A stretch of 64,000 nt of DNA from an uncultured bacterium. GTDB lineage: Bacteria; Chlamydiota; Chlamydiia; Chlamydiales; JAAZZY01. The stretch's first letter is position 1. Each line of letters begins with the position of its first letter. Location of the stretch: NCBI GenBank assembly GCA_964350945.1, contig CAYGLF010000001.1, positions 176,083 to 240,082 on the forward strand. Direction: 5' to 3'. The notes under the pieces were generated by a model that had not been told where the DNA came from, did not search any database, and was given only the letters and a program-made list of their open reading frames with translations. The translations under genes and the position numbers were made by a program. Of the stretch, positions 51,998 through 55,726 are shown in pieces.

Positions 51998-52068
51998 ACC
52001 TATTTCCAAATATTTTTTGATCCGATAGAATCAAGACAACATTAATTCTCAACTTGTGGGAAGTCTCA

Positions 52069-53457
52069 ATGGGTTTGTGGCGCACTACTTTTTTTTCGAT
52101 GACTATGCTTTTGTTTCCTAGCCCCCTACCGGCTTATTCACAGACTATGACCAATGCAGAAGCAAGCTTAAAAGCTTTAAGGGCTGATGAAATGCTTCTT
52201 AAGACCTCTTTAGTACCATTCGACTTTGAAGACAGTTCGCCTGCAGTGATTGAGCCCGAACCGCCTTTAAAAGCCGAACTACAACCCACCGAACCCTCAC
52301 AAAACCCTCAAGCTCAACTAGAGCTTAAGCTTGCAGATTTAAATCAAATAGCCCCCCCTATTTTAGAACTTTCAGAAACCTCTAAAAACTGGATCCCCAA
52401 ATTTGCATGGGTCGGTGATATTAATTCAGCAGATGAACTGAAATGCGTCGCCGCATTTTTGATTGGCTCGCTATCGAATGATCCCAAAAAAGCCCCCTCA
52501 CCAGGAGTTTTTGTCACCCCACAAAATCTAGCCAGAGAAACCTCTGAGCCAGTCATTACCAAAGATGCAACTCAAAACACCTCTACAATAAACACCGTGA
52601 ATTTTAACTCTAAAGCTTTTGCTGAAATAAGCGCAGGCGTAGGATTTGTTTATTTCTCAGGGGTTAGAGGCGTCCCCTCACCGCGTCCAACCTTTCTCTA
52701 CCCTCAAAATGCAGGAGTTAACAGCACAGCTAGTGATCAACCTGGAAATTTCCGAGGTCACCTTGAGCACAACAACCCAGCTTTGTTCACCTTTGATTTG
52801 GGATATCGGTTAACCCAATGGGTACATTTAGCGGCGACATTTCAAACACAGCAAAATATTTATATTCGATCTAAACCTTTACAGATAACGAGCACCATTG
52901 ATCCTGGAGGCACTGAAACATTTAATCTTGCTACTGATATTTTTGAAGCTAATCTAGACAACTACTCTCTTGGCGGTAAACTTACCCTTAATTGGCCAGG
53001 AGTTGTTCGCAGAAAAAACTGGACCACTGACTTTTATTTTGGCGGCCAACTATCTGCTGGCTGGCAAAGCTGGACTCGCGTAAACGCTATCCAAACCTAC
53101 ACTGTAGCTAGCACCAACCTACCTGGTTTGTTGGAAGTTCGCAATGCTGATATTTCTTTTAAACCAACCACATTTGCGAATGTCTGCTACGGTGCTGACG
53201 CAGGCCTTTGCTTTAAACCCTCCCATGCCAGCTCAAAACTGTCCTGGAAACTCGGTTGTAAATTAATCGTCTGGGGGGCTACTCGAGGTTTAGCAGATGT
53301 AAAAGATCAAAATGATCTCACTCGCCTAGGAACCTCAGATAATGCATCTCCAGCAACCACTGGGAATGAACCTATTCGCTCAAGTTACTTTAAGCCTCTT
53401 CGGATACAAGCTGTTTACTCTTGGGCGCCCTACTTAAGCTTCAAATGGCAATTCTAA
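52069..53457 (+). CDS. putative beta-barrel outer membrane protein, paralog 1
   Basis: Signal-like N-terminus, Pro/Glu-rich linker, then alternating-pattern strands. Blocks GVGFVYFSGVRG and GWQSWT are shared with the next two genes. C-terminal ...SFKWQF ends in an aromatic residue. ATG 52069 is preferred to TTG 52054. Confidence 0.55.
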   Translation: MGLWRTTFFSMTMLLFPSPLPAYSQTMTNAEASLKALRADEMLLKTSLVPFDFEDSSPAVIEPEPPLKAELQPTEPSQNPQAQLELKLADLNQIAPPILELSETSKNWIPKFAWVGDINSADELKCVAAFLIGSLSNDPKKAPSPGVFVTPQNLARETSEPVITKDATQNTSTINTVNFNSKAFAEISAGVGFVYFSGVRGVPSPRPTFLYPQNAGVNSTASDQPGNFRGHLEHNNPALFTFDLGYRLTQWVHLAATFQTQQNIYIRSKPLQITSTIDPGGTETFNLATDIFEANLDNYSLGGKLTLNWPGVVRRKNWTTDFYFGGQLSAGWQSWTRVNAIQTYTVASTNLPGLLEVRNADISFKPTTFANVCYGADAGLCFKPSHASSKLSWKLGCKLIVWGATRGLADVKDQNDLTRLGTSDNASPATTGNEPIRSSYFKPLRIQAVYSWAPYLSFKWQF

Positions 53458-53550
53458 TTCTTCTATATTGATAAAAAAGTTTTCAATTTAATCTTTGATC
53501 CATATAAACATGGAAAAATCTTTTTAAGATAGAATAAGGAAGTTTAAACC

Positions 53551-54513
53551 ATGCCATCCAAAAAGCACCTCTTTCAAACCTGTTTTCTAATTTTTGCGTT
53601 GTGCCTGACACAAGCATTGCGCGCTGAAAATGAGTTCCTTGGTGAAAATGCCGTAGCCTCTTACTCAAAACGTTCTAAAAAAAAGCAACGTCGACTCAAA
53701 TCACCAGGCGTCGATTCTTGGTTTCCATACTTTACACCTGTTCTATCAATAGAGGATGAAGATCTCAAAAGATTCACCCAATGCACCATCGGAGTCGGTT
53801 TTTTATACCTTTCAAAAGTCAAAGGAAATACAACTTTAAAACCCTCCCCCGCTAAAAGCATCTCCAATGCCACAGACACTAAAAAAGTAGGAGGCTTTAG
53901 CTACAATCGCACCCCTCTTTACCAGTACGAAATTGGAACTCGAATCGCAAGTTGGCTCAAACTCTCGCTAGCATTTCAGAATCAAAATAGTATTTATTTT
54001 CAGTCGCGCTTTAGTCCTACCTACGTCCCACCAGGTGCAACTAGAGATTCTGATGTAGGCCTTCCAAAAACTCAATTCAGAGCAAACCTAAGCCTTAATA
54101 GCGTTTTTGTAAGAGCTCTTCTTGTCACCCCCTGGGCAATGGTTTTAAAAAGCTGGGCACATACAGGGTACTTAGCAATCGCAACAGGCCCATGCTGGCA
54201 AAGTTGGACAGACATTCGTCAATATGTACAATACAACAATGATGGGGTCGAGTCGACCTTTGTAAATACCCTCAAACAAAAATATGGCGCTAGTGCACTT
54301 CTACAAATTGACTGTGGTTTGCGCACACAACCAGCTTTTACAAACAACTCTCTTTCTTTTGTGGTAGGTTTGAAGTTTAATCTTTGGGGAAGGGTCCCTA
54401 ATTTGGGGGATGAAAAAGACCAAAGCAGCTGGAAACATTCATTTAAAAAACCCTACTCAGCAACTAGCCTCTATTCTTTTTCCCCTTATTTAGGTGGCCA
54501 GTGGGTCTTTTAA
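53551..54513 (+). CDS. putative beta-barrel outer membrane protein, paralog 2
   Basis: Signal peptide MPSKKHLFQTCFLIFALCLTQALRA. Blocks GVGFLYLSKVKG and CWQSWT. C-terminal GGQWVF. Confidence 0.55.
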   Translation: MPSKKHLFQTCFLIFALCLTQALRAENEFLGENAVASYSKRSKKKQRRLKSPGVDSWFPYFTPVLSIEDEDLKRFTQCTIGVGFLYLSKVKGNTTLKPSPAKSISNATDTKKVGGFSYNRTPLYQYEIGTRIASWLKLSLAFQNQNSIYFQSRFSPTYVPPGATRDSDVGLPKTQFRANLSLNSVFVRALLVTPWAMVLKSWAHTGYLAIATGPCWQSWTDIRQYVQYNNDGVESTFVNTLKQKYGASALLQIDCGLRTQPAFTNNSLSFVVGLKFNLWGRVPNLGDEKDQSSWKHSFKKPYSATSLYSFSPYLGGQWVF

Positions 54514-54657
54514 AATAAAACAATCATTAAAAAAAATAATCTAATATTGTGTACACAAAAATTTATACATAACTTAAGATTCAATGAATCATTACAAAAC
54601 TCTTGCTCGATGCTTGAACCATCGAGACAAACAACTCTAAACTTTGAGGTGAAAAAA

Positions 54658-55665
54658 ATGCCTATGAAAAAAATATTTAATAACGCGATGAAGTCCCTTA
54701 CGACCATTGCTCTGCTTGGTAGCTTTTTAGCAACACCTCTGTTTGCTGCTGATAATCAAGTAGATGATTCTATTAACTTTGATAAATCTGGGGCTCTTGA
54801 AAACCCCAAGCATTTAAGCTCTAATAAAGAGTCTAGAAGAGATCATAAATCTCAAAAAAACAAAACAAATAGCAGCCCAGAGCTGATCAGCTACACAAAG
54901 GCAAGTTCCTCGATGACCCTTTCAAAGCTCGTAGACAGGAAGAAACAATTCTATACAACTTTCTCAACAGGTGTTGGCTTCATTAAAATCCGTAAAGCAA
55001 CGGGCCTTTTAAATGCCAAACCTTCTGCAGGAGCTTTTGATTTAGGAGCAAACTTAAAAGTTAACCGAGTGCGTAACAACAATCCTCCATGTTTTGAAGT
55101 CGGAATGGGCTACAATATTTTAGATTGGCTCAGCGTTGAGTTAACCACTCCCTTTCAAAATGCAATTAATGTAAGTAGTAGTGCAGTGTCTTCAGCATTC
55201 GTCACGAACGCTCAATTTTTTGCAGACCTAAGCGTTCAGGGACTTTTGGCAAAAGGTGTTCTACAAGCTCCTTGGACCCTTCTATGGAATAGAACGAAGT
55301 TGAATCTTCAAGCAAAAGGTGGATTAGGTCTTAGCTGGCAAAGTTGGACAAACATAAGAAATTCTCAGTCACATTTAGACGATAATGGACAACAGGTATC
55401 TTTTGTATCACGCATTAACTCCAAAACTTTTGCAAACGTTTTAGGGGAAATTGGTGGCGGTATTGGATTTACTAGGCTCAATAAAAATGGCACTCCCTCT
55501 AACTTAAATGCAGGAATAGAAGCTGTGGTTCTCTTCTGGGGCAATATCCGCAATATTGGCCTAGCAACCCAAGCAGGTAGCCAGCGCTACGCTCTATCAG
55601 ACCCCTTTAAAGCAAAAGGACTGATCTCTACAAACTTAAGATTTAACTTAAGCTTAGACTTTTAA
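54658..55665 (+). CDS. putative beta-barrel outer membrane protein, paralog 3
   Basis: Start at ATG 54658 is preceded by GAGGTG. Signal peptide MPMKKIFNNAMKSLTTIALLGSFLATPLFA. Blocks GVGFIKIRKATG and SWQSWT. C-terminal NLSLDF. Confidence 0.55.
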   Translation: MPMKKIFNNAMKSLTTIALLGSFLATPLFAADNQVDDSINFDKSGALENPKHLSSNKESRRDHKSQKNKTNSSPELISYTKASSSMTLSKLVDRKKQFYTTFSTGVGFIKIRKATGLLNAKPSAGAFDLGANLKVNRVRNNNPPCFEVGMGYNILDWLSVELTTPFQNAINVSSSAVSSAFVTNAQFFADLSVQGLLAKGVLQAPWTLLWNRTKLNLQAKGGLGLSWQSWTNIRNSQSHLDDNGQQVSFVSRINSKTFANVLGEIGGGIGFTRLNKNGTPSNLNAGIEAVVLFWGNIRNIGLATQAGSQRYALSDPFKAKGLISTNLRFNLSLDF

Positions 55666-55692
55666 GATTTTTTTTTAAGTTTCTAATTTTAT

Positions 55693-55726
55693 AAAGGCCA
55701 AAGATTGAAACTCTTTGGCCTTTTTT
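55693..55726 (+). terminator. rho-independent terminator
   Basis: AAAGGCCAAAG - 9-nt loop - CTTTGGCCTTT followed by a T-run (TTTTTT). It lies 28 nt after the stop of OMP paralog 3. Confidence 0.7.

Follow-up and report, generated by a model that had tools for sequence, protein, structure and literature searches.

A probable new family of small outer-membrane β-barrels encoded by tandem genes in a clade of uncultured Chlamydiae

Introduction

The make-up of the outer membrane is among the largest differences between chlamydial lineages, and it determines host contact and antigenicity; the Chlamydiaceae have MOMP, Protochlamydia has the Pom porins, and Simkania and Rhabdochlamydia have MOMP-like families. 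Here we describe three tandem genes, P1, P2 and P3, in a 64,000-nucleotide stretch of DNA from an uncultured chlamydia (contig CAYGLF010000001.1, positions 176,083 to 240,082; 'the window'). Their products form a family that is new and unnamed, within a well-known kind of protein: they are very probably outer-membrane β-barrels.

PomS, PomT, PomU and PomV of Protochlamydia amoebophila, an organism with no MOMP, are lineage-specific paralogs (22–28% identity, 34–39 kDa) that carry signal peptides and are predicted to form barrels; for PomS, anion-selective porin activity with a MOMP-like pore has been measured, and the genes are dispersed (pc1489, pc1077, pc0870 and pc1860) (PMC3561449). The present family is likewise chlamydial and lineage-specific and consists of low-identity paralogs with signal peptides and a predicted barrel; however, its genes are in tandem and its barrel appears to be 8-stranded. 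The MOMP-like and OmpA families of Simkania, Rhabdochlamydia and Waddlia are multi-copy, are partly in tandem and have variable surface domains, with low cysteine in Simkania (PMC6490308, PMC9723776). The present family shares with MOMP and these families the multi-copy chlamydial barrels and variable surface domains and, with Simkania, the low cysteine content; it differs from MOMP (PF01308) in having no Chlam_OMP match, a smaller barrel and other signature motifs, and the window proteins are low in cysteine, unlike classical cysteine-rich MOMP.

Outside the Chlamydiae, the closest likeness is to the small barrels OmpA-TM, OmpX, Ail, NspA, Opa and OmpW (PF13505; PF02462, Opacity), with which the family shares a signal peptide, eight predicted antiparallel strands and an aromatic C-terminal β-signal. 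Both also have periplasmic turns that are short and surface loops that are long and variable; these proteins supply the best fold matches, and there is a remote link by way of one distant relative (P0129, below). The present barrel, however, has ~250 residues instead of 150–180, with strands of ~17–29 residues, a long hairpin carrying the motif WQSWT and a W-x-P-Y-F-T motif before every barrel; the template-modeling (TM) scores are modest, and, in contrast to full-length OmpA, the family has no C-terminal peptidoglycan-binding domain.

We know of no solved structure for any multi-barrel outer-membrane protein. Such proteins have been described computationally, the commonest class being poly-8, e.g., 8-8-8 (Solan et al. 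2021, PMC8346858); they are mostly from Proteobacteria and Bacteroidetes, and the main text of that work names Chlamydiae only for the 12-12 YjbH-GfcD subfamily (PMC8346858). Fused relatives of P1–P3 share the poly-8 architecture, whereas the window genes themselves encode single barrels; in further contrast to the described multi-barrels, the barrel number in the fused proteins is strictly three.

Results

Three paralogous genes

A sequence-only reading of the window had proposed three plus-strand paralogs that share two signatures, each with a signal peptide and an aromatic C-terminus, and each low in cysteine, unlike classical chlamydial MOMP; all parts of this description hold. The open reading frames (ORFs) are the following:

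52069–53457, plus strand: P1, 462 residues; ATG start with Shine-Dalgarno-like GGGAAG upstream
53551–54513, plus strand: P2, 320 residues; ATG start; the best conserved of the three paralogs
54658–55665, plus strand: P3, 335 residues; ATG start with Shine-Dalgarno-like GAGGTG upstream

The ORF list gives earlier TTG openings for two of them, at 52054 (P1) and 54547 (P3). Each ORF holds a single barrel domain; the genes are separated by stop codons and by spacers of 93 and 144 nucleotides. In pairwise BLASTP, P1 and P2 match at 1e-25 (28% identity), P2 and P3 at 3e-18 (26% identity) and P1 and P3 at 2e-8 (21% identity), with the similarity covering the C-terminal 250–290 residues. This is far above chance, and P1, P2 and P3 are true paralogs. 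Two motifs are invariant in the three-way alignment, and each protein begins with a signal peptide (read from the sequence):

GVGF, plus strand: P1 residue 190 (52636–52647); P2 residue 81 (53791–53802); P3 residue 105 (54970–54981)
WQSWT, plus strand: P1 residue 332 (53062–53076); P2 residue 216 (54196–54210); P3 residue 227 (55336–55350)
Signal peptides, plus strand: P1 residues 1–24; P2 residues 1–25; P3 residues 1–30

The residues flanking WQSWT in P1, P2 and P3 are G, C and S before it and RV, DI and NI after it, also as proposed. The N-termini, read by eye, have the hydrophobic core of a signal peptide and end in ...PLPAYS (followed by Q) in P1, ...QALRA (followed by E) in P2 and ...PLFA (followed by A) in P3. 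All three proteins end in Phe (WQF, WVF and LDF; the C-terminus of P2 is YSFSPYLGGQWVF), and 197 of 209 family proteins have F, Y or W at this position. Cysteine makes up 0.87% of P1, 1.56% of P2 (with two of the five residues within the signal peptide) and 0.30% of P3.

Predicted fold and strand count

P2 was modeled with AlphaFold2 using 29 homologs. The model (mean predicted local distance difference test score, pLDDT, 85.4; predicted TM-score, pTM, 0.75) is all-β over residues 74–319, which follow the signal peptide and a disordered Lys-rich linker (residues 20–52). When the model was compared with the PDB using Foldseek, all 37 matches at E ≤ 1e-3 were outer-membrane barrels. The best target-normalized TM-scores belong to 8-stranded proteins (NspA, 0.70; OmpA, 0.57; the OprF N-domain, 0.56; OmpW, 0.53), and larger barrels (OmpG, FadL and a 16-stranded porin of E. 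coli) score <0.2. These models agree with the β-barrel that had been predicted from the sequence and make it very probable that the family proteins are outer-membrane β-barrels.

The strand count was approached by mean-field direct coupling analysis of 232 barrel domains; the top-ranked pairs are mostly gap or indel artefacts, and only the summed anti-diagonals are usable. These peak at P2 residues 102.5, 133.5, 163.5, 198.5, 232.5, 264.5 and 292, which match the turns assigned by DSSP. Seven turns from DSSP and coevolution point to eight strands, a count that we consider likely, with the closure of the barrel itself inferred. The topology proposed for P2 (residue numbers) is as follows:

74–97, strand A, membrane
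98–115, loop L1, surface
116–133, strand B, membrane
134–135, turn B-C, periplasm
136–152, strand C, membrane
153–172, loop L2, surface
173–192, strand D, membrane
193–194, turn D-E, periplasm
195–230, strand E, membrane and above; carries WQSWT
231–232, hairpin tip, surface
233–261, strand F, membrane and above
262–267, turn F-G, periplasm
268–285, strand G, membrane
286–296, loop L4, surface
297–319, strand H, membrane

This topology places both termini in the periplasm and every indel-rich segment outside. In a better-sampled model of a triple-barrel relative (below), strand A is a single continuous strand of 25 residues and each domain has eight strands.

Conservation follows the proposed topology. 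The mean column entropy is 2.99 bits for the loops and the top of the hairpin and 1.93 bits for the strands (Mann-Whitney p = 5.5e-16), and indels occur only in L1, L2, the hairpin tip and L4; the surface-loop diversification suggested from the three window sequences is thus seen across the family. The invariant columns (P2 numbering) are G81, G83, F84, N119, Q145, P194, W216, Q217, W219, T220, G256 and P301; no His, Ser, Asp or Glu is among them.

A family confined to uncultured Chlamydiae

Searches of three kinds recovered relatives. A word-indexed search of 5.8 billion proteins with P2 returned 27, all either unnamed or annotated 'hypothetical protein'; an HMMER profile search of 1.84 billion cluster representatives returned 104, all unnamed; and a motif-seeded scan of 185,579 species genomes located 34 loci in seven metagenome-assembled genomes (MAGs), for which the titles that name a taxon all give Chlamydiae or Chlamydiia. 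The only names found among the relatives are of the form 'hypothetical protein, Chlamydiae bacterium'. As far as these sequence collections reach, the family is confined to a clade of uncultured Chlamydiae. The P2 sequence also occurs, identically, in the Logan assembly of run ERR3534985. The Dxs protein encoded in the window is 67–73% identical to those of uncultured 'Chlamydiae bacterium' MAGs versus 59–61% identical to those of Parachlamydia and Protochlamydia. With a DUF818 'Chlamydia CHLPS' protein also encoded (58072–59172), these identities mark the window as chlamydial.

No Pfam or NCBIfam model matches P1, P2 or P3 at threshold. P3 alone gives sub-threshold matches, namely, to PF13505 (OMP_b-brl; 16.3 bits, E = 0.011, gathering threshold 28.7, with no match for P1 or P2), to CglE and to the model for the rickettsial adhesin Adr. 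At E ≤ 1, neither Chlam_OMP (PF01308) nor any porin model in Pfam matches the window proteins or any of 29 family members, and searches of PDB sequences with profiles of 3 and 29 sequences gave nothing relevant. The link to described barrels is remote: the distant relative P0129 is a bona fide member of PF13505 (1.3e-12) and aligns to the family profile with an hhalign probability of 93%, and precomputed PF13505 matches exist for many relatives.

In the search of 1.84 billion representatives, the matches that fall beyond the family core (P0126–P0132) all have 54–262 residues and are shorter than the Pom proteins at 34–39 kDa, with which they were compared by size only. Three of them, P0126, P0131 and P0132 (220–242 residues), share with the family the G-x-G-F/W start, the Y-Q-x-Q strand and the ...PY.GLQ.NF end, with GVGPGW or GVGYGW instead of the long WQSWT hairpin; by these motifs they look like short-barrel ancestors or cousins of the family.

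Fused triple-barrel relatives

About one quarter of the top profile matches are proteins of 818–1025 residues that contain three complete copies of the barrel, preceded by one signal peptide and separated by linkers of ~15–35 residues, each with the W-x-P-Y/F pre-barrel motif. They are encoded in the related loci L006–L031; examples are the following:

L007:6183–8906, fused triple-barrel relative
L009:136–3213, fused triple-barrel relative
P0031, P0033 and P0036, fused triple-barrel proteins

A gene-calling artefact was considered and rejected, as the fusions can be read in the DNA of several MAGs from stop to stop with no interruption. A search with one triple-barrel protein returned 116 clusters at 90% identity. 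The complete family proteins comprise 108 with three barrels and 76 with a single barrel; no protein exceeds three, and of the six that contain two, nearly all are truncated. This strict count of 'one or three' suggests that the barrel works in threes. Sister genomes contain dozens of copies of the triple-barrel genes as a result of expansion. At one locus (L014:4612–12778; S4CHLAM7, contig JAJACV010000047.1), nine barrels follow one another, encoded by three triple-barrel genes arranged head to tail. The domains of the L014 subgroup cluster by position (first with first, etc.); therefore, the triplication is older than the gene duplications.

The AlphaFold2 model of P0031 (875 residues, 66 homologs) has a pLDDT of 88.4 and a pTM of 0.87, a value high enough for a chain of this length that the mutual arrangement of the domains is confident. 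With this model, Foldseek retrieves single 8-stranded barrels that align over ~247 columns, one third of the chain (target-normalized TM-scores of 0.68 for NspA and 0.62 for OmpA); the fused relatives are thus modeled as three separate 8-stranded barrels. One giant 24-stranded barrel was also considered and rejected: barrels of 22–26 strands fit at TM-scores of 0.12–0.16 with a root mean square deviation (rmsd) of ~30 Å.

Features of the individual proteins

The layouts of P1 and P2 (plus strand; residue numbers) are as follows:

P1: signal peptide, 1–24; variable acidic and Pro-rich stretch; conserved module, 107–151; S/T-rich linker; barrel, ~183–462
P2: signal peptide, 1–25; disordered Lys-rich linker; W-x-P-Y-F-T, 57–62 (53719–53736); barrel, ~74–319

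The sequence-only reading had given P1 an N-terminal extension of ~170 residues rich in Pro, Glu and Ser. The extension exists, but the pre-barrel region has ~160 residues, only ~110 more than in P2, and it contains a module of 45 residues (107–151; nucleotides 52387–52521; NWIPKFAWVGD...LKCVAAFLIGS...SPGVFVTP) that is strongly conserved in all P1 orthologs. A Pfam search with the N-terminal 194 residues of P1 gave no domain match. Orthologs of P1, with 449–492 residues, are found at the same position of the related loci L001–L005; those of P2 in related MAGs have 48–57% identity. P3 is the most diverged paralog, with a long branch in a neighbor-joining tree; it has lost the C-terminal consensus YSFxPYxGxQWxF and shares 28% identity with the gene in third position in L001 and L002. 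In the same tree, P1 orthologs and P2 orthologs each form a clade of their own, and the third genes of L001 and L002 are sister to the P2 clade.

Each barrel has a conserved W-x-P-Y/F-F-T motif and then a short helix in front of it, and in the fused proteins this also holds for barrels two and three. The motif is modeled with high confidence as a short strand and, in P1, is enlarged into the 45-residue module; its role may be that of a plug, a rim strand or an inter-barrel contact.

The locus and its transcription signals

The gene order is minus-strand tandem copies of a 566-residue family, a DUF900 hydrolase, P1, P2, the third barrel and a transporter of the major facilitator superfamily (MFS), with a terminator between the third barrel and the MFS gene. 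This order is kept in L001 (S4CHLAM6) and L002, and L003 and L004 end at contig edges; the succession of barrel genes and MFS gene is common to L001, L002 and L005 (S4CHLAM7). The transcription signals are the following:

52003–52031, plus strand: promoter-like element upstream of P1, TTTCCA-17-TAGAAT (consensus scan)
53480–53508, plus strand: promoter-like element upstream of P2, TTTTCA-17-TATAAA (read from the sequence)
55693–55726, plus strand: intrinsic terminator, AAAGGCCAAAGA-TTGAAAC-TCTTTGGCCTTT followed by T residues

Upstream of the P1 orthologs, TTATTTCCAAATATTTTTTTGATCCGATAGAATCA is nearly identical in L001 and L003 and recognizable in L002 and L005. The box upstream of P2 matches TTTACA-16-TATAAA (CCGCTAATG), which is kept in the P1–P2 spacers of L001, L002 and L003. 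The consensus scan listed no promoter element at 53480–53508; it was probably missed because the scan accepts a second hexamer only with T at position 6, and TATAAA has none there.

The terminator, 28 nucleotides past the P3 stop codon, has a stem of 12 base pairs with five G-C pairs, a loop of seven nucleotides and a T-run. Its folding free energy (ΔG) is −16.6 kcal/mol (z = −5.75; none of 200 shuffles was as stable), and in L001, L002 and L005 the last barrel gene is likewise followed by an equivalent hairpin with a T-run, so the strong terminator described earlier at this position is well founded. The consensus terminator scan did not list 55693–55726, possibly, at a guess, because the A-U extension of the stem overlaps the T-run. 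No terminator-like hairpin was found between P1, P2 and P3, either in the consensus scan or when the spacers were compared. In L001 (7210–7464) and L002 (8961–9208), the spacer between P2 and the third barrel has ~250 nucleotides and forms long stable hairpins (ΔG of −58 and −54 kcal/mol); the equivalent 144-nucleotide spacer in the window has a modest hairpin only, with no T-run.

A single read-through transcript from P1 to the terminator is plausible from these sequence signals. The element upstream of P2 is conserved in four genomes, which suggests that P2 is probably also transcribed from its own promoter. The three-gene transcription unit proposed earlier is plausible in view of the conserved end and the lack of an internal terminator, but a single start does not do full justice to P2. 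Transcription would probably begin at the conserved promoter-like boxes before P1 and P2 and end at 55693–55726.

Neighboring genes

The 566-residue protein (49277–50977, minus strand) has no Pfam match. In related MAGs its family is present as two or three diverged tandem copies that always adjoin the DUF900 gene and the barrel cluster:

L001:499–3262, copies of the 566-residue family
L002:989–5091, copies of the 566-residue family
L003:883–5195, copies of the 566-residue family
L005:758–5014, copies of the 566-residue family

The gene at 57167–57982 (plus strand) encodes a product with an IQ calmodulin-binding motif, a RING-H2 finger (zf-RING_2, 1.3e-10) and, after these, hydrophobic segments; this domain content makes it a candidate eukaryote-like effector of the E3-ligase type. 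The adjoining gene (58072–59172) encodes a DUF818 'Chlamydia CHLPS' protein. Farther away, the 505-residue protein encoded at 14544–16061 (plus strand) has an additional N-terminal region of ~165 residues, and its residues 169–497 resemble synthases of N-acetylneuraminate (8e-75) and of pseudaminic acid (8.5e-68), with neither match reaching its equivalog cut-off; this similarity hints at nonulosonic-acid synthesis in this chlamydia.

Discussion

For P1–P3 as a whole, the explanation that we favor on balance is a previously undescribed, clade-specific family of small outer-membrane β-barrels with a structural or adhesive role. The precursor would be exported by Sec by means of its cleavable signal peptide, a feature of the sequence, and inserted by the β-barrel assembly machinery (BAM) through the C-terminal β-signal (...YSFxPYxGxQWxF), in line with the established biogenesis of outer-membrane proteins. 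The product would be an antiparallel barrel of eight strands that are unusually long; WQSWT would lie in a hairpin of ~29 residues. Its variable loops and hairpin tip would point toward the cell surface and its three short conserved turns toward the periplasm, where the N-terminal module of P1 would also lie, possibly as an anchor or interaction site. In view of the one-or-three count among the relatives, the barrels may function as adjacent units of three, a grouping to which P1, P2 and P3 might conform as separate polypeptides.

The role is less certain than the fold. An 8-stranded barrel is too narrow to serve as a general diffusion pore; eight strands therefore argue against a classical 16-strand porin and favor a surface protein like OmpA, OmpX or Opa. 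By analogy with OmpA-TM, OmpX, Ail, NspA and Opa, we tentatively propose a structural or adhesive role rather than that of a porin, in which the loops would be free to diversify. The lineage-specific porin or adhesin family that had been suggested from the sequence is thus retained as lineage-specific (104 relatives among 1.84 billion representatives, and all loci in chlamydial MAGs), but a classical general porin is unlikely with eight strands.

General diffusion porins, that is, water-filled channels, possibly trimers, equivalent in this clade to MOMP or PomS, are an improbable alternative. The mature size of ~30 kDa, the signal peptide and the low cysteine content do resemble the Pom porins of Protochlamydia (PMC3561449), and the three-barrel fusions recall porin trimers; however, eight strands are predicted versus 16–18, the best fold matches are non-porin small barrels, with OmpG and a 16-stranded E. 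coli porin below a TM-score of 0.2, and porin and Chlam_OMP models in Pfam give no match at E ≤ 1. Slightly less probable again is an OmpW/OprG-type channel, narrow and either substrate-specific or hydrophobic, that might supply the MFS transporter encoded directly downstream: both OmpW and OprG are among the Foldseek matches, and the order of barrels and MFS gene is conserved in L001, L002 and L005, but a conserved terminator separates the two, no sequence match to the OmpW family was obtained, and the hypervariable long loops suggest surface exposure, not transport. An outer-membrane enzyme, whether a protease (OmpT/Pla) or lipid-modifying (PagP, OMPLA), is very improbable: Pla and OmpT are found by Foldseek with full-length alignments, but at TM-scores of only 0.26–0.36 and an rmsd of 11–19 Å, and the invariant columns offer no His, Ser, Asp or Glu for a catalytic site, which makes such a role unlikely. 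Soluble periplasmic or secreted β-rich proteins, not integral to the outer membrane, are equally hard to credit given the signal peptides, the C-terminal aromatic β-signal, the all-β model, matches exclusively to outer-membrane barrels and the lack of a soluble-family match in the Pfam, NCBIfam and PDB sequence searches; no finding speaks in their favor. Clear homology to soluble periplasmic proteins was an outcome that the sequence-only reading had named as counting against its proposal.

Several points weigh against small outer-membrane barrels with a structural or adhesive role that work in threes. Support for the family is wholly computational, and every relative is unnamed or 'hypothetical'. 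No window protein reaches the gathering score of PF13505. The query-normalized Foldseek TM-scores of the P2 model are ≤0.38; therefore, no solved structure is closely related to P2. The strand number comes from DSSP strings and noisy coevolution, not from the model coordinates. Some 8-stranded barrels (OmpW, OprG and OmpA) conduct small solutes, so a channel role keeps some probability, although a lower one. Finally, the triple-barrel domains form a clade apart from P1, P2 and P3 in the neighbor-joining tree, and L005 has only two barrels at the locus, so 'works in threes' does not transfer cleanly to the window genes.

It is accordingly doubtful that the window barrels act as a three-barrel unit of separate chains. 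Somewhat less likely still is the fuller proposal that P1, P2 and P3 form a hetero-trimeric unit, the unfused counterpart of the 8-8-8 proteins, that would serve the clade, in place of MOMP or a Pom-type porin, as its main outer-membrane scaffold and surface for host contact, with the P1 module as anchor. If it were true, P1–P3 and the fused proteins would be a natural split-versus-fused pair for the assembly of multi-barrel proteins by BAM.

To the outer-membrane families that distinguish chlamydial lineages, the locus adds a further, unnamed one, seemingly limited to one clade known from MAGs only, in which the core locus is conserved as the loops diversify. An architecture of strictly three barrels, predicted with high confidence, is present in more than 100 sequence clusters; because the same barrel also occurs as separate neighboring genes, how and why barrels assemble in threes becomes experimentally approachable.

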